From: a virus
Lineage: Duplodnaviria > Heunggongvirae > Uroviricota > Caudoviricetes
Length of the DNA stretch: 16,991 nt
Strand: one strand, 5' to 3'
Virus record (IMG/VR): IMGVR_UViG_2778261391_000006
Coordinates: 1 to 16,991 of that record
Shown: positions 1-15,797 of the stretch, in pieces
How the letters are laid out: every line of letters begins with the position of its first letter
Position numbering within the stretch: position 1 is the first letter of the stretch
Position numbers and translations under genes: made by a program
Notes under the pieces: generated by a model
What the model saw: the letters and a program-made list of their open reading frames with translations, nothing else
Databases searched by the model: none
What the model was told of the DNA's origin: nothing

Positions 1-378
1 ATGATTTTTAGGGATAGCTTGAGAGTATTACCTTATGGTCGAGTAGATAATGATTTCTTCCAGATAGAAGAAAGACGTTCATGGAATGCAGGGCGATATT
101 ATTGGTCTAATAGAAGGATTTTTGGTTATATTGGAATTACTCAATCCAGTAATAAAGAGCTGAAAGATAAGTCGGGGAGAGAGGGATTCATAAGAAACCA
201 GGCTGCAAGAGAACTGAAAACTATTATATCTAATTTGTTAACTGAACTTGCTGATAGATTTTTTGGTTCACGTTCTGATGACCGTAAAGAGCTTTTAGAA
301 CAAGTTAAGCGTGAAAAAGAGTTAAGAAAATCTGCTCAACAACAAGCTCGAAAATCAACACAAAAAAGTTTTTCATAA
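1..378 (+). CDS. Hypothetical protein, 3' end of an ORF that continues upstream of the window; possibly the N-terminal (sensor) part of the downstream kinase-like gene
   Basis: Open frame from the window edge to TAA at 376-378, in the same frame as ORF 382-1719. The downstream ORF has no convincing start or RBS until ATG ~565. No recognisable motif in these 125 aa. Confidence 0.4.
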   Translation: MIFRDSLRVLPYGRVDNDFFQIEERRSWNAGRYYWSNRRIFGYIGITQSSNKELKDKSGREGFIRNQAARELKTIISNLLTELADRFFGSRSDDRKELLEQVKREKELRKSAQQQARKSTQKSFS

Positions 379-381
379 GCT

Positions 382-1719
382 TTGAAGAATCAGACACCAG
401 TTCTTGATGCTTCCTTGGAGGCTGTTAAAAGGCTGAAAACTAAGCTTGATAAAACTGATGGTTCGTTAGATTTAAACTATCTTAAAATTATAGACAGTGA
501 TCTTACAAACTTAGATGCGTTGCGCAGTGAAATTAAAACGCCTATCAAACCTCCAAAACTTGGAATGTATGAAGAGAAATATAGAGACTACAGAGATAAA
601 TTTAATGAGTTCTCTGCGTATATTCTACAAATGAAGTTAGCAATTAATAAACTTGATTCTGAATTAAATAAACTTGAGCCTTCATTGTCAGCGAAAAATC
701 ACCTTGAAAAAAATCAAGGTATTATTAATTCTAAACTAACTAAGTTTAATAACACGATAGAGGAGAAGATACATTCTCTTTTAAAAAAATGGGCCGATGA
801 AATAAAGGTTGATCGAAGTGATTATTATGCTAAAACTATATCAGTTGTTGATTCAATAGATAATGATTCACAAATTGAAAATGTGTTTAATTTGCTCGAT
901 AGTTTATATGTTGAGTCAGTTGATACCCTAACTTTCAAATATCAATCAATAATAAAAGGTCTCGATAGATTATTTGAAGGTATAAACTTAGATTCAGCAT
1001 TCTCATTATCTGAAGAAGAACGCTCATATTTTGAAGAAAAAGCTAAAAGTTTAAACGCGCTTGCACAGTTAGGTATTAGTGTTGAGATAATATCTCATGA
1101 ACTTGAAGAAATGGATTCTATGGTAACCAGAGGACTAAACTCTCTTCCTACTTTTGTAAAAGAACACCCTGGTTTTTCATTGGCGTTAAATGCTCACAGA
1201 TCGCTTACTCAACAAATACGTTTCTTATCACCTTTGAAAATATCAGGTTATCAATCCAGGCAGAGAATAACTGGAAAAAATATCATGGATTATGTCCTGA
1301 AGTTCTTTGGGGAGCGTTTCGAACGGCAACGAATAACTATTGAATTTAGTGAAGAGTTTAAGCAAATCGCAATAACAGATATACCATCAAGGATCTATCC
1401 TGTTTTTACTAATATTATCAACAATGCAATGTATTGGGTCAGTCTGTCAAATAATAGGCTCATAAAGATTGGTTTTGTGAATTCTTTGGTTATCATAGCA
1501 AATTCTGGTCCGGCAATTGATACCGATGATATCCCGCGACTATTTGAACTATTTTATAGCAAAAGAGCAAATGGACATGGGGTAGGTCTGTATCTATGTC
1601 GAGAAAACCTTGCTGTTGCACATCATAAAATATGGTATTCAGAACCTGATGAAGGCGATAACTATTTAATAAAAGATGGCGCTAATTTTGTGATCCAGTT
1701 CAATGGAGTGGAGTTCTAA
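382..1719 (+). CDS. Histidine-kinase-like protein: coiled-coil-like N-region, DHp H-box and GHKL/HATPase_c catalytic domain; no obvious TM helices
   Basis: H-box-like IISHELEEMDSM; N-box-like FTNIINNAMYW; G1-like ANSGPAIDTDD; G2-like GHGVGLYLCRE in the C-terminal third. Start uncertain (TTG 382 directly after the upstream stop; first ATG at ~565). Stop TAA 1717-1719 lies 1 nt before the next gene's ATG. Confidence 0.7.
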   Translation: MKNQTPVLDASLEAVKRLKTKLDKTDGSLDLNYLKIIDSDLTNLDALRSEIKTPIKPPKLGMYEEKYRDYRDKFNEFSAYILQMKLAINKLDSELNKLEPSLSAKNHLEKNQGIINSKLTKFNNTIEEKIHSLLKKWADEIKVDRSDYYAKTISVVDSIDNDSQIENVFNLLDSLYVESVDTLTFKYQSIIKGLDRLFEGINLDSAFSLSEEERSYFEEKAKSLNALAQLGISVEIISHELEEMDSMVTRGLNSLPTFVKEHPGFSLALNAHRSLTQQIRFLSPLKISGYQSRQRITGKNIMDYVLKFFGERFERQRITIEFSEEFKQIAITDIPSRIYPVFTNIINNAMYWVSLSNNRLIKIGFVNSLVIIANSGPAIDTDDIPRLFELFYSKRANGHGVGLYLCRENLAVAHHKIWYSEPDEGDNYLIKDGANFVIQFNGVEF

Positions 1720-1720
1720 T

Positions 1721-3469
1721 ATGACAGTGGCAAATTATAATTCTCTTGTCCAGAAAACTTTCTGCGAAAATGCAATTCGTTCCGTTGTCATGATTGATGA
1801 CGATTTTCTGACGTATTCTGAATCAATCAGGGCGTTGAATAACGAAGTTGATTTAGACTACAACAAAATTGACTCATCTAAACGAGCCGCTACTCTTGAG
1901 AGCTTTTTTCAATCTAAAAATATGATTTGTGATGTTGACAATGGTTCTGTTAATTTCGATGTGGATCGGATTAGAAAATCAGATCTTATTATTGTAGATT
2001 ATCATCTTGATAATAATGCACCTGATAAAACACTTAAACTATTACAAGATTTGAAAGACTCCGATCATTTAAATATGATTGTAATATATACTAGAGAGAA
2101 TTTAGAAACGGTTTGGATGCAGATATCATCGACTCTCAAAGGTGCTCTGGATATCAACAGCTTGATCATTGACTACGATAATGAAGATGTCCAAAGTTAT
2201 TGGGAAGACGTTGTATTACCGAACTTAAATGATAATGGTAATAAAGCTCTCACAAGAGATGAAACAATAGCCTATATTAAAGACAGTAAGCCTTGTAGAA
2301 GAATTAAAAGATTAATACATGATGATGCTGTGTTGGAGGATCAAAAGGATAAAAACTTCATTGCAAAAATGATTGCAGAATATGCTGTGTCTAGAAATGC
2401 AATTATTTCTAGCAACACATCTGGCAATGTCATTCGGGGTGATGAAAGCGGAGTAAAATGGATTCAATGTGGTAATATCTTTGTCTCCCTATTTCATAAG
2501 GTTCAAGATGATCATGAAAACGATGGAGATAGGATTTGGCAAACTCTCAATGATTCTCTCATTGAATGGAAACCATCTTATTATCAGTTAATAAAATCTG
2601 AAATTCAGAATGCAATCGAAGCTGAGGCTTTATCTTTTGTAAATCATTTGGCTAACGATCATTACGGTCAAGCTGCGTGGTTAAATGAGATATTAAAATC
2701 AGACTCGCCTGATATTAGATGTAGAAATATTGACTTTGTATTTGGTAATTTATCAGAAGAGCTTTATCAAAGACTTAAAAATAATAATACGCTGGATGAA
2801 TTTATCAAAAGTGTTTTTGATAGCTATTCAAATGAATACGCTAACAGCGGAGTTGCTGCATTGCTCCAATATTGCTCTTCAAAAATGGATCTGCCATCAA
2901 ATAATGATACTTATCACGAAATGTATCATGCTTTAAATATGAATTTGTCTTCAAAGAATTTTGAAGATGGTCATATTTCTACTGGCACTATTTTCTTTGA
3001 TACAGAGTCGAACAAATGGTATTTATGTGTATCTGCGGCATGTGATTTGGTTCCTACTCAGGGTAACGACCCTCACCATGTAAGATTAAGTCCGCACAGG
3101 CTCATTAAAGTTCTGGAGCTTTTTAACGCCAGTCAGAGTAAAGCATTGCCATTTGCTGAACATTCGAAATATATATATGTAATGCATAAAAATCAAAGAA
3201 AATATCTCTCTATTTTCGAAGGGGATAAAACGCTTCCTGTTGTTGATTATATGGTGGTGTTGAATCATGGAACAACAGTTGATGGCGAAGAAAAAAATAT
3301 TATTTCTGCCGTGTTTTTAAGTAATATGGATGGCAACGTGCAAAATGTTCCTGTCCGACTCAAACTTAAATCTCAACTGAGAACTGGTTATGCAGAAAGA
3401 TATCAGGCTATAGCGTCTCAGTATAGCTCAAGGATTGGTGTGGATTATGTATCAATGATGCTACCATAA
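1721..3469 (+). CDS. Response-regulator-like protein: N-terminal receiver (REC)-like domain fused to a ~430-aa uncharacterised C-terminal domain
   Basis: ATG 1721 preceded by GGAG (1710-1713) at 7-nt spacing; alternative ATG at 1703 has no RBS. REC-like pattern: acidic VVMIDDD strand, candidate phospho-acceptor Asp in DLIIVDYHLDNNAPDKTLKLLQDL, then NMIVIYTRE (Thr position). I recognise no motif in the C-terminal domain. Stop TAA 3467-3469. Confidence 0.65.
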   Translation: MTVANYNSLVQKTFCENAIRSVVMIDDDFLTYSESIRALNNEVDLDYNKIDSSKRAATLESFFQSKNMICDVDNGSVNFDVDRIRKSDLIIVDYHLDNNAPDKTLKLLQDLKDSDHLNMIVIYTRENLETVWMQISSTLKGALDINSLIIDYDNEDVQSYWEDVVLPNLNDNGNKALTRDETIAYIKDSKPCRRIKRLIHDDAVLEDQKDKNFIAKMIAEYAVSRNAIISSNTSGNVIRGDESGVKWIQCGNIFVSLFHKVQDDHENDGDRIWQTLNDSLIEWKPSYYQLIKSEIQNAIEAEALSFVNHLANDHYGQAAWLNEILKSDSPDIRCRNIDFVFGNLSEELYQRLKNNNTLDEFIKSVFDSYSNEYANSGVAALLQYCSSKMDLPSNNDTYHEMYHALNMNLSSKNFEDGHISTGTIFFDTESNKWYLCVSAACDLVPTQGNDPHHVRLSPHRLIKVLELFNASQSKALPFAEHSKYIYVMHKNQRKYLSIFEGDKTLPVVDYMVVLNHGTTVDGEEKNIISAVFLSNMDGNVQNVPVRLKLKSQLRTGYAERYQAIASQYSSRIGVDYVSMMLP

Positions 3470-3482
3470 TTATTATATTTTA

Positions 3483-3523
3483 GGCGTGGTGATTTTTTTT
3501 CGCCATGCCTATTTTATATTTAT
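3483..3523. terminator. Putative bidirectional terminator between convergent genes
   Basis: Imperfect inverted repeat AGGCGTGG (3483-3490) / CCATGCCT (3504-3511) with a T-rich loop, followed by a T/A-rich tract; lies between the convergent stops at 3469 (+) and 3541 (-). Confidence 0.3.
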
Positions 3524-3540
3524 CATCACAATGATGTTGT

Positions 3541-3957
3541 TTATTTTTGTTTAAGTCTTCTAAGCTTCATGCATTCTAATGAGAATAATAATAGAGTTGT
3601 GCTGTATATAAAGCCAGAGTTAGTTAATAACTTTAAATTTAATGCTTCAGGATTTTCACTGAGAAAGTGAAAGGCATAAACTAAGTATACAGCTAAAGTA
3701 GCCGTTCCAATTGTTGGTCCAATATCGCCTTGATCATGAGGTTCAAGGTTTACATTGAACTTGAAGATTAGCCATTCAAATCCCCAAGTAAAAAAAACAA
3801 CTAATATCATGGCTGCGAATAATTTCGCGATGTTATCTGCTGATGGATTCATCAGAACAGATTGTTTCTGAAAAAATTCACAAAGTGAGAGTCCGAAAAA
3901 AATAAAAAAAAGTGGTCTGGAACTAAATTTTTCAAAAACTTTGAATAGGGTTTCCAT
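3541..3957 (-). CDS. Small multi-pass membrane protein (138 aa), function unknown
   Basis: ATG at 3955-3957 with GAAGG-type RBS ~9 nt upstream; three to four hydrophobic helix-length segments (LFFIFFGLSL, AAMILVVFFTWGFEWLIF, TATLAVYLVYAFHFL, FIYSTTLLLFSL). Starts 38 bp downstream of the integrase stop on the same strand. Confidence 0.5.
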   Translation of the reverse strand: METLFKVFEKFSSRPLFFIFFGLSLCEFFQKQSVLMNPSADNIAKLFAAMILVVFFTWGFEWLIFKFNVNLEPHDQGDIGPTIGTATLAVYLVYAFHFLSENPEALNLKLLTNSGFIYSTTLLLFSLECMKLRRLKQK

Positions 3958-3995
3958 TTTCTTTACCTTCAGGATTATATTAGCTATTCTGATAC

Positions 3996-5225
3996 TTAGG
4001 CTACCAGAGCATTTGATCTTTGAGCTTGAACGTAATCACTCCACCATTGCATCAAACTCTGTCGCTCTATCAGATATTCTGCACGATTGTATGCTGCGAT
4101 AATTTCATCTTTTTTCGAGTGGGCAAGCGCTGCCTCAAGAACTTCAGCTCTGAATTTACCAGACTCCTCTGCCGCTGTTCGTGCAATAGAACGCATACCG
4201 TGAGCTACAAGCTCGCCTCCGAACCCCATTCGGATGATAGCTGCGTTGGCTGTTTGTTCATGCATATGATTAAGAGGCGCTTTTATGCTGGGGAAAACCC
4301 ATTCTCTATGCCCACTTATTGATTTCATTAATTCAAGGATGCGCAAAGCTTCTTTACTCAAAGGAACTTTGTGAAGCTTTTTCATTTTCATGAAATCAGC
4401 AGGAATGTTCCAAATGCTGTTGGTTGTATCAATATCAGACCACCTTGCGCGAACGGCTTCACCCGGACGAACCCATGTCAACAATTGCCATTCAATTAGC
4501 ATACGTGTTTCCAACCGGATTGACGCATTCGTCAAAGATTCCATAAACCTTGGCAATTCGCTTGGGGGAAGGGCAGGCATATTTTGCTTTTTTGGTTTAC
4601 TGAATCTTTGACCAAGGTTGTCAGCCGGGTTGAACTCAATAAGTTCTTCAGTAGCTGCCCACCGGAAGATTTCATTCAGACGTGAAATGATACGGCGTAG
4701 AGTTTCCAATACGCCTCGTTGCTCAATAGGATCAAGGTGTTGTTTTAAGAGCTTAGGTCGGATCTCATTGATAGGGACATTACCCAGACCGGGAAAGACA
4801 TTTCTCTCTAAGCTGCGCCAGATGTCTGCTGCATGGTCTTGTGAGATACCTGATGTCTTTACCTTCTCATCTAACCATTTCCGCGCTACGGCTTGGAGAG
4901 TGTGCTCAGTAGCACTCTTTAATGCCTTCGCCTTATCGTTGTTATGGATTTGGGGATCAACACCATTTGCCAGAAAGGAGAGATATTCATCACGTAAGGC
5001 TCTGGCTCTTGCAAGGGTAAGGTGAGGATATGTCCCAAGGCTCATTTTGGTTCTTTTCTTGCTCACTGGTACTGCATACCTGAAATACCAATTTTTCTTG
5101 CCTCCTTTCGCCAAAGGAGCGATTCGTAGAATCAGACCATCACCGTCAAACAAGTTGATTTCTTTATCGGCTGGCTTGGTGCTTTTGATTTCAGTGTCAG
5201 TGAGCTTCTTAGCGATTTTTGCCAT
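3996..5225 (-). CDS. int: P4-family tyrosine integrase (site-specific recombinase)
   Basis: N-terminal arm-binding-type region (KLTDTEIKSTKPADK...DGDGLILRI...WYFRY); C-terminal catalytic region with HxxR (LVAHGMRSIA) and Tyr motif (AAYNRAEYL). ATG 5225 has a GAGGG RBS; the ORF could also start at ATG 5267 (no RBS). Confidence 0.9.
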   Translation of the reverse strand: MAKIAKKLTDTEIKSTKPADKEINLFDGDGLILRIAPLAKGGKKNWYFRYAVPVSKKRTKMSLGTYPHLTLARARALRDEYLSFLANGVDPQIHNNDKAKALKSATEHTLQAVARKWLDEKVKTSGISQDHAADIWRSLERNVFPGLGNVPINEIRPKLLKQHLDPIEQRGVLETLRRIISRLNEIFRWAATEELIEFNPADNLGQRFSKPKKQNMPALPPSELPRFMESLTNASIRLETRMLIEWQLLTWVRPGEAVRARWSDIDTTNSIWNIPADFMKMKKLHKVPLSKEALRILELMKSISGHREWVFPSIKAPLNHMHEQTANAAIIRMGFGGELVAHGMRSIARTAAEESGKFRAEVLEAALAHSKKDEIIAAYNRAEYLIERQSLMQWWSDYVQAQRSNALVA

Positions 5226-5390
5226 TTTGGGACCCTCGGTTTTTGGACCCTTCTTAGTGGGTCCCATTCAGGGTGCCATAACTCGTAGTTCTCAGCAATT
5301 CTCACTGGACGACAATAGACGTAAAAAAGCCCGCAGAGCTTGTGCTGTGTGGGCTTAGTAGACTTCATTGAACTTCAAACAACTAAAAAG

Positions 5391-5412
5391 TGGTGGGCTG
5401 GCGGAGTTTGAA
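5391..5412 (-). other. tRNA/tmRNA 3'-end-like motif (candidate att core) between the integrase 5' end and crr
   Basis: Minus-strand reading TTCAAACTCCGCCAGCCCACCA ends in CCA and resembles, with a few indels, the T-arm/acceptor 3' end of tmRNA as I remember it. It lies ~165 bp upstream of the int start, where P4-type att sites sit. Not a complete tRNA. Confidence 0.3.
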
Positions 5413-5559
5413 TAAATATTGTATTGCTTTGATTTTTAATGATTTTGTTTAATTCATTTTTTGTGCGTATACCTAATCGTATACCAATGGTTGTAAGTTA
5501 ATGTGAAATGAAAGCGCATTTTTACTTGGATTGATGCTATATCGTACAGGAAAAAAATT

Positions 5560-5860
5560 TTTTTTCGAAAGAACTGTTCACACTGTTCACCTTTCTGTTT
5601 TCTCCTTTTATTTCAGAGTGATAGGTGGTGAATAATGGGTGAAGGGTGAACATTCGATTCTTCACCTCCGGCATTCTGCCGGTGTGACTTGTGCAGGGGA
5701 TTAATTTCCCGTGCTGAAATCATACCGGAAGAAAAAAAGTTTTTTTTGATTTGATTGTTCACACTGTTCACCTTTCATTTTTCTCTTTTGATTTCAGTGT
5801 GATAACGGGGGAATATACGGTGAAGGGTGAACACTGGATTGTTCACCTTCGGGGGATGTC
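5560..5860. repeat. P4-type cis replication region (crr): two imperfect direct repeats, each carrying TGTTCACC-type iterons
   Basis: Repeat 1 iterons at 5576-5583, 5585-5592 and inverted GGTGAACA at 5645-5652; repeat 2 at 5756-5763, 5765-5772, 5826-5833 and 5840-5847. Units are ~180 bp apart with the same internal order. TGTTCACC is the octamer bound by P4 alpha protein. Confidence 0.8.
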
Positions 5861-5863
5861 GGG

Positions 5864-5891
5864 ATAAAAAAAAGACCGGCAGATGCCGGTC
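5864..5891 (-). terminator. Rho-independent terminator of the leftward operon, just downstream of the alpha stop
   Basis: Minus-strand hairpin GACCGGC-ATCT-GCCGGTC (5874-5891) followed by a U8 tract (plus-strand A-run 5866-5873), 7 nt after the alpha stop codon at 5899-5901. Confidence 0.55.
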
Positions 5892-5898
5892 AGGTGGG

Positions 5899-8232
5899 TC
5901 AGGTTGTTGCAGGGGCGTCACATTTTGGCAGCCAGTCGCCGTAGCTTTCCTCTTTCAGCGTCAGGTTGGTCTGTATCCCCTGTTTGGTATGGCGCTTCTC
6001 GTAATTCAGTCCGTATTCCTTCAGCATCACCGGCAGCCCCAGCCCGAACATTTTCAGACTGAGTACATTCCGGTAGCCGTTTGCCTCCATGTAGGCCAGA
6101 TAGGCGTGATAGAGGTATTTACGGTAATTGCGCGGGATGATACTGGCGTTCCCCATATACATGCCGCTGGTCTGCGGCAGGGTTTCCAGATAGCCGATAA
6201 AATCAAACGTCGGGTCGGCATCCCGTTTGATGTTCAGTGCCTCGTCTGAGTTCTGCTGGGACTGAAGCAGTGACCGGGCGAGCATCGGGTCGCTGAACTT
6301 CTGCATCAGGTGACGCACGATGACCGCCAGCTCGCGGGTGATTTTGTCCTTAAGCTGCGGGTCGCGCTCCTGCGGGGCTATCTGTTCCGGGAAGTGAATA
6401 ATCACCCGCCGGCGTGACACGCCGCCGCTGCGGTCGGTGAAGCGCATCGGGTTATTGTTCACGGCCAGAATCACCGCCGGGATATGCGTGGAGTACGCAT
6501 CCCGGTATTTCGGGTCCACGGACACCGCATCGCCGCCGGTGATGGCCTTGAGTCCGGCACCGTCGCCGCTCCATTTTTCCTGGTCCGGCAGGCGTATCAG
6601 TGAGAAGCCAGTTAACGCGGCACGTTCACGCGGGGATTCCAGCGTCTCGATGGTGGCCGACGTGGCGTTATCCTCCCCGGCCAGCAGGGTGGCTATTTCG
6701 GCCATGATACTTTTGCCGCTGCCGCCAGGACCGGTCACCTCCAGAAAGAGCTGCCAGTCGTAGCGGTTTGCCAGCACCATAAACAGTGCGGCCAGAATCA
6801 CGTCGCGTTTTTCCGCACGGCCACCGGCGGCACGGTCAAGCCAGCGCCAGAACGCGGGGGCGTGGGTCTCCAGCGTTTCACCGTCCACCGGCGGGGTGAA
6901 ATCCACATCGCACAGGGTGCGCATCCAGTGTGACGGACTGTGCGGGTGGAACGTGCCGTTCTGCGTGTCGAGCACGCCGTTACGAAAGCCAATCAGGCGG
7001 CGGGAGGGGGCTTCCTGCTGCGGAATAATCAGCTTCAGGGTGTCCACCACGGAGGCCACCTTCCCGGAGGAGAACGGCGCGCGCAGACGCTGAAACAGCC
7101 CGGCCACATCCCGGGCAAAGTCCTGTGGCGGCAGCACCTTCCAGACACCATTTTCATAACGGGACAGAAGCTGGCCGTTGGCATCGACCGCGAGCGCCTC
7201 GCCGTAATGCTCATAGATACGCATGGCCTTTTCGCTGGTACTCATGGCGGAAAACTCTGCTTCGCTCATGGTGTCGAACGGGCTTTCAGCCGGTGGCCGG
7301 ATGGCATCATAAATGGCCTTACGGGTGGCCTCCCCGCCGTACTGCGTGAAGGCATCATTCCAGTCACCGAAGACCGGCGGCAGGGCAACAACACCTTCAC
7401 ACGCATCTGCGGCTGCGGCGGCTTTTTTCTGGCCGTCACCGCTGAGGTCACGGTCTGCGGCAAGGACAATCTGACAGGCCGGATGCTTCTGCCGGGCAAG
7501 GCTGGCCAGAGAAAGGAGGTTCACGGAAGAAAGCGCCACCATCACCGTTTCCCCGGTCAGGTGATGCACGGTAAGTGCGGTCGCGTATCCCTCCGCTATC
7601 CACAGACGTTTTCCGGCCTGATTCTGTCCTTCAAGGGTGTGACAGGTGCCCCTGACCTGTCCGCCTTTCAGGGTGCGCTTACGGCCGTCAGCACTGATTA
7701 ACTGAAGGTTAACCAGTTCGCCGCTGTCGTCATACAGTGGCACCACAAGGTCACCGGCGCGCCAGCTCACGCCACCGGCTCTGTGTGTGCCGGTCAGCAT
7801 CCGGCATTCCCGGTCGGGAAAGCCCTTGCGGGTCAGGTAGGCGTTACCGGTTCCGGGCCGGGTTTTTGCCATCAGGGTTTGTGCCAGTGCGGCGGCGTTC
7901 TTCCGGGCAGCGTCTGTTTCAGCACCGGCGGCGGCCGTCACTGCCGGGTCAGCCGGGGGCAGGCTGCCGGTCACGGCAGCCACCTTTGCGGCCGCGTCGG
8001 ACGGGGAAACACCAAACACCTTTTCAACCAGTTTCAGGCCGTCACCGGCACCACACTGATTGCAGTACCAGGTGCCGCGCCCCTCCCTGTCATCAAAACG
8101 GAAGCGGTCACTCCCGCCACAGACCGGACAGGGCTGATGACGGTTCTTCAGCACCTGAATCCCCAGCGCCGGGAGAATACGCGGCCAGTGGCCGAGCGCA
8201 TGGCTGACGGTGGCGGTTACGTTCATTTTCAT
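5899..8232 (-). CDS. alpha: P4 alpha-type replication protein (primase-helicase with origin-binding domain), 777 aa
   Basis: Zinc-binding motif CPVCGG...CNQCG near the N-terminus; primase EGYATA motif (WIAEGYATALT); Walker A GPGGSGKS; AAGGAGA RBS before ATG 8232. Length equals P4 alpha; iterons of the type it binds are present at crr and ori. Confidence 0.95.
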   Translation of the reverse strand: MKMNVTATVSHALGHWPRILPALGIQVLKNRHQPCPVCGGSDRFRFDDREGRGTWYCNQCGAGDGLKLVEKVFGVSPSDAAAKVAAVTGSLPPADPAVTAAAGAETDAARKNAAALAQTLMAKTRPGTGNAYLTRKGFPDRECRMLTGTHRAGGVSWRAGDLVVPLYDDSGELVNLQLISADGRKRTLKGGQVRGTCHTLEGQNQAGKRLWIAEGYATALTVHHLTGETVMVALSSVNLLSLASLARQKHPACQIVLAADRDLSGDGQKKAAAAADACEGVVALPPVFGDWNDAFTQYGGEATRKAIYDAIRPPAESPFDTMSEAEFSAMSTSEKAMRIYEHYGEALAVDANGQLLSRYENGVWKVLPPQDFARDVAGLFQRLRAPFSSGKVASVVDTLKLIIPQQEAPSRRLIGFRNGVLDTQNGTFHPHSPSHWMRTLCDVDFTPPVDGETLETHAPAFWRWLDRAAGGRAEKRDVILAALFMVLANRYDWQLFLEVTGPGGSGKSIMAEIATLLAGEDNATSATIETLESPRERAALTGFSLIRLPDQEKWSGDGAGLKAITGGDAVSVDPKYRDAYSTHIPAVILAVNNNPMRFTDRSGGVSRRRVIIHFPEQIAPQERDPQLKDKITRELAVIVRHLMQKFSDPMLARSLLQSQQNSDEALNIKRDADPTFDFIGYLETLPQTSGMYMGNASIIPRNYRKYLYHAYLAYMEANGYRNVLSLKMFGLGLPVMLKEYGLNYEKRHTKQGIQTNLTLKEESYGDWLPKCDAPATT

Positions 8233-8246
8233 GGTGTTGTTCTCCT

Positions 8247-8567
8247 TCAGTGCAGTACCGGCGCTTTTATGTGACGGGCACAGAGTTCATCCATCACAAC
8301 CAGCCCGAGAAAGGACAGCGACGGCGCTGCCTTCAGGGGGCCGGATTCCATTAAATCTTCCAGCAGGGCACAGGCTATCTGACGCCCTTTTTCCTCACCG
8401 TGCTGGCGCAGATAAAAGCCTTCCAGCTCAGCGGCGATGGCCGCCTCCAGTGATTCAAGGGTGAGATGCGGGTAGCGGTGCTGACGTTCGCACACGGTCA
8501 GCCAGGCACAGGCGACAGCGCGACGGTAAAGGGCTGCGCGTAAGACGGGCGGTAAGGGTGTTTTCAT
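8247..8567 (-). CDS. Hypothetical protein, 106 aa, in the position and size of P4 orf106
   Basis: ATG 8565-8567 with strong GGGAGGAAA RBS; ends 14 bp before the alpha start on the same strand. Confidence 0.6.
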
Positions 8568-8702
8568 TTGCTTTCCTCCCTGTGACAGATGACTGCATTC
8601 CGTGCCGGTTGCATTAACTGATAAGGCATATCTGCGTCTCCTGAAGACGTGCGTATCCCTGCGCGAATACGCACATTTAATTTTTCGGGTGTCGTTTTTT
8701 AA

Positions 8703-9158
8703 TTACAGATAATTGCGGTAACTGTTATCCGGGGTGATTTCCGGGTCAGGCTCCGTGCGGGGAATTTCCCGCCATTCCCGCGCCACCGGTGCCGCCCGGC
8801 TGACCGGAACAGTGTCCTGCGGGTAAATATCCAGATATTTCTCCCGCCATTTCTGTAATTCCGGGTCTCCGGCCATTTCTTTCAGTACCGCATGCCGGTT
8901 TACGGGGCTGCGTTTAAACAGGTCAGGACGGTCACAGGTAAATTCCCGCAGAAAACGCCCCAGCGGGATGTCTGTGGTGCGCCCGTCAGCGAGGATACGC
9001 ACAAGGATACTGAATTTACGGCGGTACGGGTTCCAGACAATGTCCGGGCAGCGGTACGGCATTTCCCACGGAATACCGTCTTCCAGAATGCCGACCACGG
9101 CCACATCGGGAAAACCGGCAGAACGGTAAATCTCACCGGGCTGGGGAAAATCAAACAT
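8703..9158 (-). CDS. Hypothetical protein, 151 aa, in the position and size of P4 orf151
   Basis: ATG 9156-9158 with GGAGA RBS; overlaps the epsilon stop by 8 nt, consistent with translational coupling in the left operon. Confidence 0.6.
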   Translation of the reverse strand: MFDFPQPGEIYRSAGFPDVAVVGILEDGIPWEMPYRCPDIVWNPYRRKFSILVRILADGRTTDIPLGRFLREFTCDRPDLFKRSPVNRHAVLKEMAGDPELQKWREKYLDIYPQDTVPVSRAAPVAREWREIPRTEPDPEITPDNSYRNYL

Positions 9159-9438
9159 GCGTCCTGTCTCCCCGGTCTTTCTGCTGGGCGAGAAAATCGC
9201 GGCACAGGCCTTTGGCTTTCAGCTCATTCAGCACAAAATCAATATCTTCATTCAGGTAGCTGAAAATATGCGGAATGTAGAGCTGATGCAGGCCGGAGAG
9301 TTCACGGTGAATCAAATCACCCCCAACAAACTGGGATACGGCGCTGGCGCGGTTGAGCTTATGGTAAGCCTCAATGCTGAGGTGTTCACGGGCGTCATGA
9401 CGCGCTGAGACGGTCTGAGGGGCTTTTTTATTACGCAC
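9151..9438 (-). CDS. epsilon: Probable epsilon-like protein (P2-repressor antagonist / derepression protein position), 95 aa
   Basis: ORF with GTG start and no internal Met, in the expected place between the immunity region and orf151. Assigned by synteny only. Confidence 0.45.
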
Positions 9439-10021
9439 GGGACACCCCCATCACCGGCAGACGGGCAGCAAGGGAGAGCACATAGTCACGGACAAGGGAA
9501 CGGCGGGCGCTGCGTTCATCACCGGCGACGGTGCGAAGCATACAGATACGGGGATGACGGTCTGCGCGACGGACAGCCGCAAACACAAAGACAAATTCAG
9601 GGTGTGAGGGGGTAAGGGTCGTAGCCATAAGGCAACCTCCGATAACAGCGTAAATGACGCTATCGCCGGAGTTCTCACGCTCGATGGCGATAGCCCAGAC
9701 GGGGGTGAGAATACCGGCGTTATCGGATACCGGCCAGCCCGAAGGCTGCCCCGCCTGAGCTACCATTGACTCAGTGGCATAACATGCGATTGCGAACAGG
9801 ATCATACCTGCACGGCAAACCACACGCCACACCATAATCTGGCGCTCTGTGGCGTTGATTGCGACACAAAAAAAGACGCATGGCGCGTCATATGTCGCCG
9901 ATAACATACTCGGGTTCTCACGCCCGGCTGCCGATTTTGCGGCAGCGGAAAAACTATATCCGCAAATGCCGGAAAAAGGCAAGCCAGAAAAAGGGAGTTT
10001 TTGCAGAGCGGGCATCATCAT
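9431..10021 (-). CDS. ORF in the left-operon leader/immunity region (kil/eta-equivalent position); boundaries uncertain
   Basis: Start ATG 10019-10021 overlaps the vis stop in an ATGA arrangement, but a good promoter candidate lies inside this ORF, so the real product may start further downstream or the frame may be a GC-rich artefact. Confidence 0.25.
9439..9945 (-). other. Leader/immunity region of the left operon, where a P4-type CI RNA and its complementary seq elements are expected
   Basis: Region between the candidate early promoter and the epsilon start. By P4 architecture the processed immunity RNA lies here; I could not place it by sequence. Confidence 0.3.
9953..9982 (-). promoter_or_regulatory. 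Candidate early leftward promoter (PLE-like), sigma70-type
   Basis: Minus-strand TTGCCT (-35, plus 9977-9982), 18-bp spacer, TATAGT (-10, plus 9953-9958); lies ~395 bp downstream of the candidate late promoter, matching the P4 PLL-PLE spacing. Confidence 0.4.
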
Positions 10022-10284
10022 GCGTCGTACCCCCGTTTGCGTCCGGCAATGCGCCCGGCCATCCATGCGGTGATTTCAGAGTGCAGCCAGGCCACATTTT
10101 TACCGCCAAGGCTCACCTGCGGTGGAAATTCCCCCTTACGGATAAGTTCATAGATGGTCGAGCGTGACAGGCCGCACAGGTGCATCACTTCCGGCAGACG
10201 TAAAAAACGCTCCTGTGTGATATCCGGCAGCGGAATCAGTGGCGTCACAGGGGCGGGAGACGGGGAAGAAAAAACAGCTTGCAT
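10018..10284 (-). CDS. vis: Vis / AlpA-family small DNA-binding regulator-excisionase, 88 aa
   Basis: AlpA-type HTH core [50 protein letters not shown]; ATG 10282-10284 with GAGGT RBS; first gene after the leftward late promoter, as in P4. Confidence 0.85.
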
Positions 10285-10386
10285 CGGGCTACCTCGTTAA
10301 TGTCCATACAGCACCGGATAAGTCCGTCCGGCTTCGGGTAGCGCTTTATTTTGTGAATATTTTTGGCAGACGCAACAGGGGGGATT

Positions 10387-10404
10387 TGTTCAGGCAGCCT
10401 TACA
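10387..10404 (-). promoter_or_regulatory. Late leftward promoter activator site (PLL-like), TGT-N12-ACA dyad
   Basis: TGT(10387-10389)-N12-ACA(10402-10404), about 100 bp upstream of the vis start; this dyad is the Ogr/Delta site of P2/P4 late promoters. Confidence 0.5.
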
Positions 10405-10563
10405 ATGGCTGTGTGTTTTTTATCCATCCGGACTGGAAGGGTCTCAAAGGGTTCTGAAGGACCTGGAATTTTTTATAGTGAAATACAAATTGTTTTTTCT
10501 TATTCATTCCCGGCGAATTAATAAAAACAAACAGTAGTAAACAGCACAAAAAGTCCATGAGCG

Positions 10564-10668
10564 GGTGAACAGTGGTGAACAGACGGTGAACAGTCATTAC
10601 TGCGATTGTTCACCCTTTAACTTACTGTATTACTTATCTTTTTTATTAAGGTGAACAGAGGTGAACAG
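10564..10668. repeat. P4-type origin of replication: six type I iterons around an AT-rich spacer
   Basis: GGTGAACAG at 10564-10572, 10574-10582, 10585-10593, 10650-10658, 10660-10668 and inverted TGTTCACC at 10607-10614; AT-rich stretch 10616-10649. Same octamer as in crr, ~4.9 kb away. Confidence 0.75.
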
Positions 10669-10746
10669 TAAAATATAAAAAAACAAACAGTAAGCCGGTT
10701 TTTCCTGCGACCTTTTCCTGGCTTGCCGGTGTGAGGATGAGTCTCC

Positions 10747-10764
10747 TGTGTCAGGGCTGGCACA
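10747..10764 (+). promoter_or_regulatory. Late rightward promoter activator site (Psid-like), TGT-N12-ACA dyad
   Basis: TGT(10747-10749)-N12-ACA(10762-10764), ~80 bp upstream of the sid ATG, the expected position for a -55-centred activator site. Confidence 0.55.
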
Positions 10765-10836
10765 TCTGCAATGCGTCGTGTTGTTGTCCGGTGTACGTCA
10801 CAATTTTCTTAACCTGAAGTGACGAGGAGCCGGAAA

Positions 10837-11571
10837 ATGTCTGACAACACCATCCCTGAATATCTGCAACCCGCACTGGCACAACTGGAAAAGGCCAGAG
10901 CCGCCCATCTTGAGAACGCCCGCCTGATGGATGAGACCGTCACGGCCATTGAACGGGCAGAGCAGGAAAAAAATGCGCTGGCGCAGGCCGACGGAAACGA
11001 CGCTGACGACTGGCGCACGGCCTTTCGTGCAGCCGGTGGTGTCCTGAGCGACGAGCTGAAACAGCGCCACATTGAGCGCGTGGCACGCCGGGAACTGGTA
11101 CAGGAATATGACAATCTGGCCGTGGTGCTGAATTTTGAACGCGAACGCCTGAAAGGGGCGTGTGACAGCACGGCCACCGCCTACCGGAAGGCACATCATC
11201 ACCTTCTGAGTCTGTATGCAGAGCATGAGCTGGAACACGCCCTGAATGAAACCTGTGAGGCGCTTGTCCGGGCAATGCATCTGAGCATTCTGGTACAGGA
11301 AAATCCGCTCGCCAACACCACCGGCCATCAGGGCTACGTCGCACCGGAAAAGGCTGTCATGCAGCAGGTGAAATCATCGCTGGAACAGAAAATTAAACAG
11401 ATGCAAATCAGCCTCACCGGCGAGCCGGTTCTCCGGCTGACCGGACTGTCAGCGGCAACACTTCCTCACATGGATTATGAGGTGGCAGGCACACCGGCAC
11501 AGCGCAAGGTGTGGCAGGACAAAATAGACCAGCAGGGAGCAGTGCTTAAGGCCAGAGGACTGCTGTCATGA
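10837..11571 (+). CDS. sid: Sid-type external capsid-size-determination scaffold protein, 244 aa
   Basis: ATG 10837 with GAGGAG RBS at 7-nt spacing (the track's 10819 start has no RBS); coiled-coil-rich; length and position match P4 Sid; stop overlaps the delta start (ATGA). Confidence 0.85.
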   Translation: MSDNTIPEYLQPALAQLEKARAAHLENARLMDETVTAIERAEQEKNALAQADGNDADDWRTAFRAAGGVLSDELKQRHIERVARRELVQEYDNLAVVLNFERERLKGACDSTATAYRKAHHHLLSLYAEHELEHALNETCEALVRAMHLSILVQENPLANTTGHQGYVAPEKAVMQQVKSSLEQKIKQMQISLTGEPVLRLTGLSAATLPHMDYEVAGTPAQRKVWQDKIDQQGAVLKARGLLS

Positions 11572-12068
11572 TTTACTGCCCGTCGTGTGGTCATGTTGCT
11601 CACACCCGCCGCGCACATTTCATGGACGATGGCACCAAGATAATGATTGCACAGTGCCGGAATATTTATTGCTCTGCGACATTTGAAGCGAGTGAAAGCT
11701 TTTTCTCTGACTGTAAAGATTCAGGAATGGAATACATTTCAGGCAAACAGAGATACCGCGATTCACTGACGTCAGCCTCCGGCAGTATGAAACGGCCGAA
11801 AAGAATGCTTGTTACCGGATATTGTTGTCGGAGATGTAAAGGCCTTGCACTGTCAAGAACATCGCGGCGTCTGTCTCAGGAAGTCACCGAGCGTTTTTAT
11901 GTGTGCACGGATCCGGGCTGTGGTCTGGTGTTTAAAACGCTTCAGACCATTAACCGTTTCATTGTCCGCCCGGTCACGCCGGACGAACTGGCAGAAAGCC
12001 TGCATGAAAAACAGGAACTGCCGCCAGTACGCTTAAAAACACAATCATATTCGCTGCGTCTGGAATGA
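11568..12068 (+). CDS. delta: Delta-type late transcriptional activator (tandem Ogr-like zinc-finger protein), 166 aa
   Basis: Two Ogr-like zinc-finger halves: CPSCGH...C...YC and CCRRCKG...C...C; translationally coupled to sid; length equals P4 Delta. Confidence 0.9.
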   Translation: MIYCPSCGHVAHTRRAHFMDDGTKIMIAQCRNIYCSATFEASESFFSDCKDSGMEYISGKQRYRDSLTSASGSMKRPKRMLVTGYCCRRCKGLALSRTSRRLSQEVTERFYVCTDPGCGLVFKTLQTINRFIVRPVTPDELAESLHEKQELPPVRLKTQSYSLRLE

Positions 12069-12141
12069 GGGCTGCCGGTTAACACCGGCCGTCGCCGCAC
12101 ACCGTATTTTTATTCTTCAGCATGATGAGAAAGAGATAACG

Positions 12142-12714
12142 ATGGAAAGCACAGCCTTACAGCAGGCCTTTGACACCTGTCAGAATAACAAAGCAGCATG
12201 GCTGCAACGCAAAAATGAGCTGGCAGCGGCCGAACAGGAATACCTGCGGCTTCTGTCAGGAGAAGGCAGAAACGTCAGTCGCCTGGACGAATTACGCAAT
12301 ATTATCGAAGTCAGAAAATGGCAGGTGAATCAGGCCGCTGGTCGTTATATTCGTTCGCATGAAGCCGTTCAGCACATCAGCATCCGCGACCGGCTGAATG
12401 ATTTTATGCAGCAGCACGGCACAGCACTGGCGGCGGCACTGGCACCGGAGCTGATGGGCTACAGTGAGCTGACGGCCATTGCCCGAAACTGTGCCATACA
12501 GCGTGCCACAGATGCCCTGCGTGAAGCCCTTCTGTCCTGGCTTGCGAAGGGGGAAAAAATTAATTATTCCGCACAGGATAGCGACATTTTAACGACCATC
12601 GGATTCAGGCCTGACGCGGCTTCGGTGGACGACAGCCGTGAAAAATTTACCCCTGCGCAGAACATGATTTTTTCGCGTAAAAGTGCGCAACTGGCATCAC
12701 GTCAGTCTGTGTAA
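12142..12714 (+). CDS. psu: Psu-type polarity suppression / capsid decoration protein, 190 aa
   Basis: Third gene of the sid-delta-psu late operon; length and position match P4 Psu; followed by cos. Confidence 0.8.
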   Translation: MESTALQQAFDTCQNNKAAWLQRKNELAAAEQEYLRLLSGEGRNVSRLDELRNIIEVRKWQVNQAAGRYIRSHEAVQHISIRDRLNDFMQQHGTALAAALAPELMGYSELTAIARNCAIQRATDALREALLSWLAKGEKINYSAQDSDILTTIGFRPDAASVDDSREKFTPAQNMIFSRKSAQLASRQSV

Positions 12715-12740
12715 AATTTCCCGAAAATCCGCCTGTTTTT

Positions 12741-12777
12741 ACTGAAAAAAGCCATGCATCGATAAGGTGCATGGCTT
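12741..12777 (-). terminator. Putative terminator (hairpin plus T-tract on the minus strand) between psu and cos
   Basis: Perfect 10-bp stem AAGCCATGCA / TGCATGGCTT (12749-12758 / 12768-12777) with a 9-nt loop; on the minus strand it is followed by TTTTTT (plus-strand A-run 12745-12750). Could stop the integrase-cargo transcript and possibly psu read-through. Confidence 0.4.
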
Positions 12778-12878
12778 TGCATGCGTTTCCCTGCCTCATT
12801 TTCTGCAGACCGCGCCATTCCCGGCGCGGTCTGAGCGTGTCAGTGCAACTGCATTAAAACCGCCCCGCAAAGCGTGCG

Positions 12879-12897
12879 GGCGAGGCGGGGAAAGCAC
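12879..12897. other. cos site: P2/P4-type 19-nt cohesive end sequence
   Basis: Exact GGCGAGGCGGGGAAAGCAC, which I recall as the P2/P4 cohesive end, at the position expected from P4 (just after psu). Confidence 0.8.
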
Positions 12898-12911
12898 TGC
12901 GCGTAGCGATA

Positions 12912-14684
12912 TTAAATATCCCACAATTTTTCTAAATCAAGAGTATCGCTGTTAGGAGCATTTTCCTCAGCTAATCTGTCGATTTGAACAAGTAATGGGG
13001 TGTGGAAAGCTGTTCCTGAAACTATACACCCACCAGGAGGAAGTGTTGGAATTAGTGATCTTGATGCCGCATCAAGGGTGCTTAAAGTATTTTTTAACAA
13101 AAACAAATCATTTTCGTTCACTAATCGATGAATAAAATAATTATGAAGTTGGGAAACAATTGTGGGAGAGATGTCAAAAGGTCGTTGACTCGAAATTGTA
13201 ACGAAGAACCCAAACTTCCTTCCCTCTTTTATTATTTCCTCAAATAACTCAAGCCTATAATCTTTCCATGTTTCCGCCTCTCTGACAGATGTTTCAGACA
13301 ATATGTTGTGTGCTTCATCTATAATTAGGTGGAAGCTTTCCTTTGTATTTTTAGATGACTTGTGCTCTAAGAATGAACATTTTGCAAGCATCATTGGAAT
13401 GGTTTTTTTGATTAATTGATTGCACTCTTTTAATGACACTATATATATAGGTTTTTTATTTTTTGTTTCGTTTCTGATATTAATTACTTTGGATAGGGCA
13501 GGAGTCATTGCCGTTATTTTATTAATTAGCGGATATATATGATCATATTGTACATAATTACGTGATACTGAATTAATTAGTTGTAGAATAGATCGGATTG
13601 CAACTTCATCAAAAACGCTGTTTAACTTAAACTTGGATTTATATGTTGCATCTAAAGCCTGTAAAGCATCTTCCATTTTATCAATGAAGTTGTATTTTGA
13701 GTGCAAATACTTATTTTGCCCAGAATGCCATGAGAATTGTGATAACTCTTCAAGTATTTTACCCTGTGCTCTCTCTGAAAAGTAAGGGGCAAGGCTTTTT
13801 AATAAATTTATTGTTTCCCTGTGTGGATTAGGAGAAAACATACTGTGGATAGTTGTTTGTAAGTAATCCTCCAATTTACCATTATATTTTTCTCTATTTT
13901 TAATTAAATGACTAAGAAATGGCTTTTGAGTTTTTTCAGTTGCAGAAAACAATACCGATAATAATTCATCATCCCAAAATTCATCATCAGTGAAAGTTAG
14001 TTTATCACCGGAATTCTTTGTGTTGAGATTGACTTGTTCGCACAAATCTGGAAATGACGTAGCAAATGTGCTGTATTCACCATTAAAATCAATCAAAACA
14101 AAACTTGATTTTGATATAACTCTTTCTTTTGTTGTTATAAGGTTTATTAGAGAGTGATAAAGTTTTGCAAGAGTGTTGGACTTGCCACTTCCAGTGTTTC
14201 CAAATATGCCTATGTGTGAATTAAAAATACCATTTATTGGTATGTTAATTGGCAACTCCTCTAACATAGATTTCCCTATGTTTATTAAAGGTGCTTTAGT
14301 GTTTTTGCTAAACTTATATATTTCTGATATCTTCTCGTCTGAAATTAAGTGTAAGCTGTCATTTATCATTGGTAAAAATTTTATACCGGAATAAAATGAA
14401 CTCTCAAAAAAATACCCTAAAATATTCAGTTCTACAAAACGGTCATATTTTTTTTGTTCAATTTCATCGCTTCTAATATTGATGTTTTCAACAATTTCTT
14501 CACCAATAATCTTTCCGACGATATCGTGATAACCTTTTTTAATCAAAACAAATTCATTTATAGAGATACCTCGTAGTATTTTACCTTTATGAAAGTATGT
14601 TGACTGAAAAAAGTCATGATTGATTTTGGCCCTTACTGTTGTGCCCTTTATTTGGGTAACATTACCAACAATTAGTTCTTCCAT
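12912..14684 (-). CDS. herA: HerA-like ATPase (HerA/FtsK-type), partner of the SIR2 protein in the SIR2-HerA (Nezha) defence system
   Basis: Walker A GIFGNTGSGKSNT; Walker B/DEAH LIIDEAHN; C-terminal RKFGFFVTISSQRPFDI-type segment typical of HerA; ATG 14684 with GGAGA RBS; overlaps the upstream SIR2 gene by 13 nt. Confidence 0.85.
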   Translation of the reverse strand: MEELIVGNVTQIKGTTVRAKINHDFFQSTYFHKGKILRGISINEFVLIKKGYHDIVGKIIGEEIVENINIRSDEIEQKKYDRFVELNILGYFFESSFYSGIKFLPMINDSLHLISDEKISEIYKFSKNTKAPLINIGKSMLEELPINIPINGIFNSHIGIFGNTGSGKSNTLAKLYHSLINLITTKERVISKSSFVLIDFNGEYSTFATSFPDLCEQVNLNTKNSGDKLTFTDDEFWDDELLSVLFSATEKTQKPFLSHLIKNREKYNGKLEDYLQTTIHSMFSPNPHRETINLLKSLAPYFSERAQGKILEELSQFSWHSGQNKYLHSKYNFIDKMEDALQALDATYKSKFKLNSVFDEVAIRSILQLINSVSRNYVQYDHIYPLINKITAMTPALSKVINIRNETKNKKPIYIVSLKECNQLIKKTIPMMLAKCSFLEHKSSKNTKESFHLIIDEAHNILSETSVREAETWKDYRLELFEEIIKEGRKFGFFVTISSQRPFDISPTIVSQLHNYFIHRLVNENDLFLLKNTLSTLDAASRSLIPTLPPGGCIVSGTAFHTPLLVQIDRLAEENAPNSDTLDLEKLWDI

Positions 14685-15787
14685 GTAATCCAATCTCCGT
14701 GTTCAGATCTAAATACTCTATCTATAAACGGTTTAAATGAAATTGTATGATCATCTTCTATAGGAAGAATATAGGTTATTCGTTGGTCATTGATAATGTG
14801 CTGTATACTTTCCATGCTGGATTTTGAGTAGCAAAAAACAAAGACCTTAAGAGTAGGGTTACTTAATGATCTTTTTATAATCTCACGTATGTGTTCATCT
14901 TGAAAAGAAAAACCAAAACAAATTAATACAGTTTGTGGTTTCTCTAATTCATAACTTAGCAATCGTAAACATTGGTAATAATGTTGTTGAAAAACAGTTT
15001 CAGAAAATTTTTCTTTAGTTGGGCTAACTATAGCTAAGTTGTTGTAATAAGATTTAAATTCTTGAAGTGTTTCTTGATCGCTTGTAGATAAATTTAAATA
15101 ACTAACGAGATTATCGCTTGTTTCGTTTAAGGTGGTGACTAAATCATTAATGTCTTTTTTTGTATCTAGTCTAAACTTTGGTGGTTCTTCTTGAGTGTAA
15201 TTAATACTAATCGTTTCATTAATATCTCTACACCAAGAAACAGAACCATGCATTTTTATTAAGTTTACTGTTGGAATTTCATGTTTGTACATATCATGCG
15301 TACCTTGATGCCAAGCAGTAATATGAAAATTACTAATGTTCAATTTCCGGCTTTTGAAACCTAGACCACCGTCATTGAAATGAAATGTTTTATTATTTAA
15401 AATATCATCAGCCGCAGTTTCGAAAAAAAGATCATAATTTGTTGTAAAAATATTCGCTCGCCTTATTTGATTTGCCCCTTTTTTCTCTAATAATTTGATT
15501 AGTTCATCAATAAAGTAGCTATAGTTTGCTAAAGTAGAATTATATTTTTTGTCTTCACTATTAGGTTTAACACAAAATGTTTTTCTAATGATATTATTGA
15601 AATAAGAACATAATATGAAGTCCTTGACACCCTCACAATCCTCATGTGTAAGTAATGTTTCATAAGTAGTGTTTTTATCTAGATAGAGAGTAGGAATATA
15701 TGAAGCAGAGGAGCCTGAGCCAAATAAAAAATTTATATTTTTATCATAGATATTTGAGGCTTTGCATGGAAAATCTTTATTATTCAT
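14672..15787 (-). CDS. SIR2-family (sirtuin-like NAD+-binding) protein, first gene of the SIR2-HerA defence operon
   Basis: Rossmann glycine loop FLFGSGSSASYIP; TTNYD motif (sirtuin TQNID-like); catalytic-His-type MHGS; ATG 15785-15787 with AAGGA RBS; starts 7 bp after the integrase stop. Confidence 0.85.
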   Translation of the reverse strand: MNNKDFPCKASNIYDKNINFLFGSGSSASYIPTLYLDKNTTYETLLTHEDCEGVKDFILCSYFNNIIRKTFCVKPNSEDKKYNSTLANYSYFIDELIKLLEKKGANQIRRANIFTTNYDLFFETAADDILNNKTFHFNDGGLGFKSRKLNISNFHITAWHQGTHDMYKHEIPTVNLIKMHGSVSWCRDINETISINYTQEEPPKFRLDTKKDINDLVTTLNETSDNLVSYLNLSTSDQETLQEFKSYYNNLAIVSPTKEKFSETVFQQHYYQCLRLLSYELEKPQTVLICFGFSFQDEHIREIIKRSLSNPTLKVFVFCYSKSSMESIQHIINDQRITYILPIEDDHTISFKPFIDRVFRSEHGDWITWKN

Positions 15788-15797
15788 CACTATATCC

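Follow-up and report, generated by a model that had tools for sequence, protein, structure and literature searches.

A probable broken relic of a methylase, kinase and receiver module at the end of an old ssrA island in Escherichia coli

Introduction

The beginning of a 16,991-nucleotide stretch of DNA catalogued as viral (Caudoviricetes; IMG/VR record IMGVR_UViG_2778261391_000006, positions 1 to 16,991; hereafter the window) raises the question of whether two adjacent genes, one resembling a histidine kinase and the other encoding a receiver domain, form a working defence system of a new kind. An initial annotation, made from the sequence alone, had proposed an undescribed, Detocs-like phosphorelay, and pipelines and machine-learning predictors still show two healthy genes there, an 'ATP-binding protein' and a 'response regulator receiver domain'. 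We find that the segment is a pseudogenised leftover. It is best explained, very probably in our judgement, as the end of an old island at ssrA that carries a broken relic of a methylase/kinase/receiver module. Healthy-gene labels on such a relic can mislead censuses of E. coli defence systems.

Results

The window kinase gene is the tail of a longer gene

Two + strand frames occupy the first 3.5 kb of the window, the stop codon of one (1717–1719) lying a single base before the start of the next (1721). The tight coupling initially described (stop at 1719, start at 1721) was borne out; RefSeq also starts the receiver gene at 1721, and the other possible ATG is at 1703. The kinase open reading frame (ORF) at 382–1719 opens only at TTG. 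Its frame is open from position 1, stops at a TAA (376–378) and then resumes in the same phase to 1719. This indicates that 382–1719 is only the tail of a longer gene.

The description of the gene as histidine-kinase-like held for its domains. The product matched Pfam HEF_HK, a DHp/H-box family, at 31.1 bits (cut-off 24.1; nucleotides 1066–1242) and HATPase_c at 44.6 bits (cut-off 26.4; 1384–1659). Its SHELEE motif contains the phospho-acceptor His at 1096–1098 (His366 of the remnant, His782 in full-length numbering), and the ATP-binding domain has an N box at 1411–1437 and a G2 box at 1573–1599. The C-terminal 210 residues matched solved histidine-kinase cores, e.g. 3a0r, and, as had been stated, no transmembrane sensor is present in the product. 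NCBIfam gave only sub-threshold matches for the kinase core and no match for the receiver protein. What did not hold was the completeness of the gene, since the in-frame TAA had been overlooked.

In protein searches the remnant was 99% identical to the C-terminal 572 residues of 988-residue proteins from Serratia, Klebsiella and Salmonella, and window position 1 corresponds to Met417 of one such full-length homologue (P0036). Positions 1–375 (+) represent codons 417–541 of this 988-residue GHKL-ATPase/histidine-kinase protein, and 379–1719 (+) encode a coiled-coil region, the DHp domain and the catalytic ATP-binding domain, where the Pfam matches lie; the rest of the 5′ part falls beyond the window and has been lost by deletion in E. 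coli. Full-length homologues of 988–994 residues have a GHKL domain (HATPase_c_3) at residues 28–137, followed by HEF_HK at 772–830 and HATPase_c at 878–969. HATPase_c_3 is present in the 99%-identical P0036 and missing from the window kinase and from every E. coli copy of this allele. The sensor-free kinase is the result of a loss: the absent 'sensor' is the N-terminal GHKL ATPase domain, deleted in E. coli along with the upstream methylase gene.

The C5 methylase gene is missing from the window, and IS3 lies upstream in the E. coli copies. In strain R1 IS3 is found just upstream, and the kinase frame is open to the IS3 end, covering residues 377–416 of the full protein. When the intact Serratia locus was searched against complete E. 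coli genomes, the match began at the same base in all 558 that had one, and none of them covered the methylase or the kinase N-terminus. The identical left end in all 558 points to one ancestral cut, and shows that a single IS3-associated deletion took the methylase gene and kinase codons 1–376 in E. coli. One possibility considered was a natural short isoform, given the '572-aa' kinases in annotations of Salmonella, Pectobacterium, Klebsiella and others. We rejected this, since Salmonella locus L020 has an intact 994-codon frame, which makes the short form a choice of annotated start site.

The TAA at 376–378 (+) arose by a G-to-T change that turned GAA into a stop codon (Glu126* of the remnant). 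Strain R1 and the intact Serratia allele have G at this position, and the T allele was found in none of the 561 complete E. coli genomes with the locus; the nonsense codon is private to the window strain.

The E. coli copies are drifting

The locus occurs in ~560 of 5426 complete E. coli genomes (~10%), and no copy falls below 99.8% identity. When compared with the intact allele of Serratia, the kinase remnant shows 5 shared non-synonymous changes against 3 synonymous ones. In a small sample of 10 copies from E. coli it has acquired 11 non-synonymous changes against 1 synonymous, the former including two independent nonsense codons, E126* in the window strain and Q67* in strain 03_3013. The receiver gene showed 7 non-synonymous and 3 synonymous changes among the same copies, including Y557D in strain R1 at a residue invariant in the family. 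RefSeq flags frameshifts in the receiver gene of strain CRE1540 and in both genes of isolate ecoli019, an annotated internal stop was also seen, and insertion sequences interrupt the locus in further E. coli copies. This substitution pattern is what neutral drift gives. The remnant has been inherited vertically, drifting, in about a tenth of complete E. coli genomes.

A 5.6-kb contig binned into a 'Bacteroidales' metagenome-assembled genome (DAIPZW010000118.1) carries a receiver gene 100% identical to that of the window and the truncated kinase ORF. This is probably the E. coli relic present as a binning contaminant.

The intact unit has three genes and travels on mobile DNA

We examined 62 loci, one genome per species from many phyla, scoring neighbours with profiles built for this analysis. 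The kinase core adjoined the receiver gene in 53/53 loci with enough flanking sequence, and in 52 of 53 the GHKL part and the kinase core formed one ~3-kb ORF. A C5 DNA methylase was present in 44/45, most often immediately upstream in the same orientation, sometimes immediately downstream in convergent orientation. The constant kinase–receiver adjacency and the near-constant methylase indicate that the conserved unit has three genes, not the two of the initial annotation.

The closest intact form lies on an island beside smpB/ssrA in Serratia and Klebsiella, with genes 99% identical, in the order integrase, 138-residue protein gene, receiver, kinase and C5 methylase (Pfam DNA_methylase). The end of the methylase gene overlaps the kinase start by ~20 nucleotides there, and a kinase start overlapping the methylase end is frequent in the related loci. 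Beyond the methylase lie a relaxase gene and further recombinase genes, which indicates a mobilisable island. More distant relatives were found on an ICE (integrative and conjugative element) in E. coli and Salmonella and on a Tn7-like transposon in Acinetobacter, with a C5 methylase alongside each time; the arrangement methylase, kinase, receiver recurs on the ssrA island, the ICE and the Tn7-like element. The expectation that the pair is not a core-genome two-component system agreed with these settings. A role in genetic conflict is plausible for a kinase/receiver family carried on such DNA, and the wider family, found in many phyla, is compact cargo of islands, ICEs and Tn7-like transposons, coupling a methylase, a GHKL ATPase-kinase and a receiver-effector.

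No restriction endonuclease gene was conserved beside the trio in the ssrA-island, ICE and Tn7-like contexts. By the usual definition of restriction-modification (R-M), a methyltransferase with its cognate endonuclease, the trio has a methylase as near-universal partner and no recognised nuclease among the partner proteins. PADLOC models gave only chance-level matches to the window pair and to the full-length homologues, as anticipated for a pair without a match in defence databases; the methylase alone matched type II and DruM-like models. Other restriction genes were seen near two intact copies, encoding a ScoMcrA-like HNH protein (Salmonella L020, 9775–10650) and a type I HsdR (Acinetobacter L013, 21456–22949), which fits a defence-island setting.

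The receiver gene is intact and encodes a family-specific C-terminal region

The receiver-effector gene (1721–3469, +; 582 residues) is intact in the window. Its product matched Pfam Response_reg_2 (PF19192) at 109.1 bits (cut-off 27; E 3.7e-31; nucleotides 1775–2245), and the domain has a helical insert, with Asp93 at 1997–1999. The residues D26, D27, D93, T124 and K260 were invariant across 34 homologues. Together with the kinase, the pair has the canonical phosphorelay residue set (His followed by an acidic residue, N and G boxes, and the receiver DD...D...T...K series), and on these residues phosphotransfer is predicted. The fusion of the receiver domain to a large unassigned region, reported from the start, was confirmed: ~320 residues follow without a family assignment, laid out as a helical middle (~2520–2950) and a beta-rich C-terminal domain (~2951–3415).

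Searches with this region returned little. Pfam gave no match for the last 320 residues of the window protein and nothing recurrent across 15 members, a profile of the region had 0 matches to all PDB sequences at E up to 10, and Foldseek of the effector region against PDB gave no significant match, the best having E 0.066 and MazF-mt3 coming no higher than rank 26 (TM-score 0.49). The similarity of the C-terminal domain to the CcdB/MazF/Kid toxin fold is weak, and it has no Pfam PemK or CcdB match. The conserved C-terminal residues of the family (H403, N406, C436, C441, D442, R554, R571 and D575) are, to our knowledge, not those of MazF or CcdB. No DNA-binding domain was found in the receiver protein, and no nuclease fold or motif in either protein, by Pfam, PDB sequence or fold searches. 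A profile search of 1.84 billion representative proteins with the C-terminal region yielded 679 clusters, essentially all with the same receiver-fusion architecture. This indicates that the domain is specific to that architecture, and other contexts give no clue to its function.

The family is already described and differs from Detocs

The kinase/receiver family is not new. The HEF_HK/Response_reg_2 pair (Pfam PF19191/PF19192) was described in 2021 by Bellieny-Rabelo, Pretorius and Moleleki, who reported that the two genes show 91.6% linkage, that 83% of the kinases carry HATPase_c_3 at the N-terminus, that the proteins are soluble and that C5 methylases lie nearby; they drew a link to paraMORC ATPases and had an E. 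coli member among the examples (PMC8011034). They also found R-M genes enriched around the pair and speculated on a regulatory role (PMC8011034). Both window proteins pass the curated Pfam thresholds and adjoin, and the intact relatives examined show every feature of that description; the window copy differs in lacking HATPase_c_3 and the methylase and in having a stop codon. Whereas those authors proposed regulation, our data favour a cargo module of three fixed genes that has an effector domain of its own. A literature search for experimental characterisation of the family returned nothing beyond the description of 2021, two passing citations and the tables of DefensePredictor.

The likeness to Detocs was only partly sustained. 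Detocs (DtcA/DtcB/DtcC) consists of a kinase with a TPR sensor, a receiver that stands alone and an effector in which a receiver is fused to PNP, and its listed effectors besides the PNP ATP-nucleosidase are a restriction endonuclease, a TOPRIM protein and a transmembrane hydrolase (Rousset et al. 2023, bioRxiv 10.1101/2023.01.24.525353). The shared logic is that mobile DNA encodes a cytoplasmic kinase together with a receiver whose C-terminal partner region is non-DNA-binding. Unlike DtcA, the intact kinase starts with a GHKL ATPase domain (HATPase_c_3) and has no TPR sensor. A receiver-only gene corresponding to DtcB is found neither in the window nor in the gene lists of four intact contexts, the C-terminal 320 residues of the receiver protein are not PNP or any other listed effector, and the intact module has a methylase among its core partners, whereas Detocs has none.

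The N-terminal half of the comparison leads elsewhere. paraMORC GHKL ATPases belong to R-M operons (Iyer, Abhiman and Aravind 2008, PMC2292703), and the intact kinase protein likewise opens with a HATPase_c_3 GHKL module beside a cytosine methylase. The GHKL-nuclease Shedu VcSduA provides an example of a GHKL ATPase gating a defence effector (PMC12137116). The present family differs from both in that its GHKL module forms one protein with a histidine-kinase core, which signals to a separate receiver-effector protein, and the intact module has no PD-(D/E)xK, HNH or TIR domain.

The same E. coli proteins appear among the novel defence genes predicted by DefensePredictor, WP_000214990.1 with log-odds 12.0 and WP_000577254.1 with log-odds 6.6 (Science 2026, PMC13092281); the former is the window receiver protein and the latter the truncated kinase. 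A full-length E. coli relative (units 2CM2 and 2CMP; a 989-residue ATP-binding protein and a 607-residue receiver protein) reached a top log-odds of 14.8, and was cloned on a low-copy plasmid in MG1655 with predicted native promoter regions, where it gave no defence against 24 phages (PMC13092281). The family is among the highest DefensePredictor scores, yet it failed validation. The phage test suggested for the cloned operon had in effect been carried out on a full-length kinase and receiver, with no protection. The insert covers these two genes only and leaves the methylase out; its failure to protect therefore does not settle the matter for the intact family. As the kinase start commonly overlaps the methylase end, we infer that the true promoter may also be missing from the clone. 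The near-universal methylase and this overlap suggest how the family could be tested properly.

The pair belongs to an old island, with a satellite inserted later

Base composition sets the pair apart, as initially noted: GC content is 0.34 over 1–3469 and 0.56 in neighbouring P4-like core genes. The integrase alongside is P4-type, as had been said (3996–5267, –; Pfam Arm-DNA-bind_3, Phage_int_M and Phage_integrase; RefSeq start 5225), and belongs to the older, ssrA-integrating island. In alignment, the region upstream of this integrase is near-identical to the Serratia integrase-to-ssrA region up to an ssrA 3′-end fragment at 5390–5412, and divergent beyond. This fragment, an attachment-site scar, marks the border between the island remnant on the left and a P4-like satellite on the right. 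Window positions 1–5412 are best explained as the surviving end of an old mobilisable island integrated at ssrA.

The satellite runs from ~5413 to its own integrase at 15798–16991, which is cut by the window end. In other strains the satellite integrase abuts ssrA. The satellite was inserted later, between ssrA and the island remnant, in a tandem arrangement. We considered whether the kinase/receiver pair is cargo of the P4-satellite hotspot between its integrase and psu, and rejected this on the ssrA scar and the comparison with the Serratia island. The pair lies past the ssrA scar, and the intact island form has a relaxase and no P4 genes, which makes the pair integrase-proximal cargo of the older island. 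The SIR2-HerA operon, whose position the initial annotation had seen mirrored here, belongs to the P4-like satellite.

Discussion

The window pair has no sensor domain, no methylase and no full kinase that could be made, and its receiver is an orphan, which together indicate that it is most likely inactive: the window pair most likely does nothing. What weighs against reading the locus as a relic is that the receiver gene has stayed intact in the window, as in most of the E. coli genomes sampled, and that an orphan receiver may there retain some function; that this gene differs from the Serratia allele by 12 synonymous and only 1 non-synonymous change; and that the 10 copies behind the polymorphism counts are a small sample, picked partly from lower-identity matches. 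The intact receiver ORF and the 12:1 ratio, with the persistence of the locus in ~560 of 5426 genomes, would also be expected if an orphan receiver-effector had been kept for a new role, for instance as a toxin-like module that acetyl phosphate or a different kinase phosphorylates or, in strains that lack the stop codon, as partner of a 572-residue kinase core with expression from the IS3 end. We consider this very unlikely. The copies are so nearly identical that persistence may only reflect recent common descent, the receiver changes within E. coli are mostly non-synonymous, include Y557D and are joined by frameshifts, and the 12:1 ratio can predate the deletion.

That the window genes instead make up an entire Detocs-like phosphorelay defence system, working and of a new family, is scarcely credible to us. 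Kinase-core and receiver motifs in genes 1 nucleotide apart, AT-rich cargo adjoining an integrase and the high log-odds of these very proteins do speak for it. They are set against a kinase gene without its first 416 codons and with a stop at codon 126 of the remainder, the missing methylase, relaxed selection with independent disruptions of both genes in other strains, a family published in 2021 without the defining features of Detocs, and a full-length relative that gave no protection. The truncation and the nonsense codon largely refute this possibility, and the claim of a functioning system at this locus gives way to that of a relic without methylase or sensor ATPase domain. For the intact family, we regard it as unlikely that the proteins are an ordinary regulatory two-component system controlling neighbouring R-M genes, with no effector function. 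The enrichment of R-M genes around the pair (PMC8011034) and the fact that kinase and receiver alone were neither toxic nor protective when cloned would suit such a role. The receiver protein, however, has no DNA-binding domain by Pfam, PDB sequence or fold search, the contexts read show no conserved restriction endonuclease gene next to the trio, the C-terminal region is confined to the receiver fusion, and the compact three-gene cargo moves on unrelated mobile elements.

The relic very probably derives from an island module made of a C5 DNA methyltransferase, a 988-residue soluble protein joining a paraMORC-type GHKL ATPase to a histidine-kinase core, and a 582-residue receiver with a family-specific effector. 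In the intact module the methylase would mark host DNA, and the GHKL ATPase part may sense foreign or unmodified DNA or a cue of infection. Sensing would turn on autophosphorylation at His782, the phosphoryl group would be handed to receiver Asp93, and the C-terminal domain, with its weak resemblance to a CcdB/MazF-like toxin fold, might then be released to stop the cell or the invader. We tentatively propose, with more doubt than confidence, that the intact trio is a methylation-guarded phosphorelay immune or addiction system of a type not yet demonstrated, in which a paraMORC-type ATPase reads DNA status and a His-to-Asp signal passes to a toxin-like effector, and that the published test was negative only because the methylase and probably the upstream promoter were omitted. 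This mechanism meets several difficulties. By sequence (PDB profile search and Pfam) the effector region matches no nuclease or toxin family, the Foldseek search gave nothing significant, and the full-length kinase and receiver clone was viable and non-protective in MG1655. A viable and non-protective clone fits poorly with a simple scheme in which unmethylated DNA triggers killing, unless the clone was not expressed.

Other features of the window

Between the receiver gene and the older integrase, 3541–3957 (–) encodes a 138-residue hydrophobic protein without a family match in Pfam, PADLOC or NCBIfam. Its gene adjoins the integrase in the Serratia and Salmonella islands and is absent from the ICE and Tn7-like contexts; it accompanies the island type and lies outside the conserved module. 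A tRNA scan over the window detected none.

The P4-like satellite encodes a primase/helicase (5899–8232), DUF5375, a derepression protein, Ash, AlpA, Delta and Psu, and within 5413–12714 a 250-residue protein without a family match occupies the Sid position. Its variable slot holds the SIR2-HerA operon (12912–15790, –; PADLOC HerA E 1e-192, SIR2 E 4e-65); in other E. coli strains the same slot holds a NACHT protein, an AAA ATPase with DUF4435 or two hypothetical genes. Immediately past the primase gene lie two direct repeats (5550–5671 and 5731–5852) of 122 nucleotides each, 81% alike, with starts 181 nucleotides apart, which we take to resemble the pair of 120-bp repeats in P4's cis replication region (crr). 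Rfam matches above the gathering score at 9683–9959 (–), to C4 antisense RNA, isrK and the a1/b1 target element, identify the immunity RNA region of the satellite.

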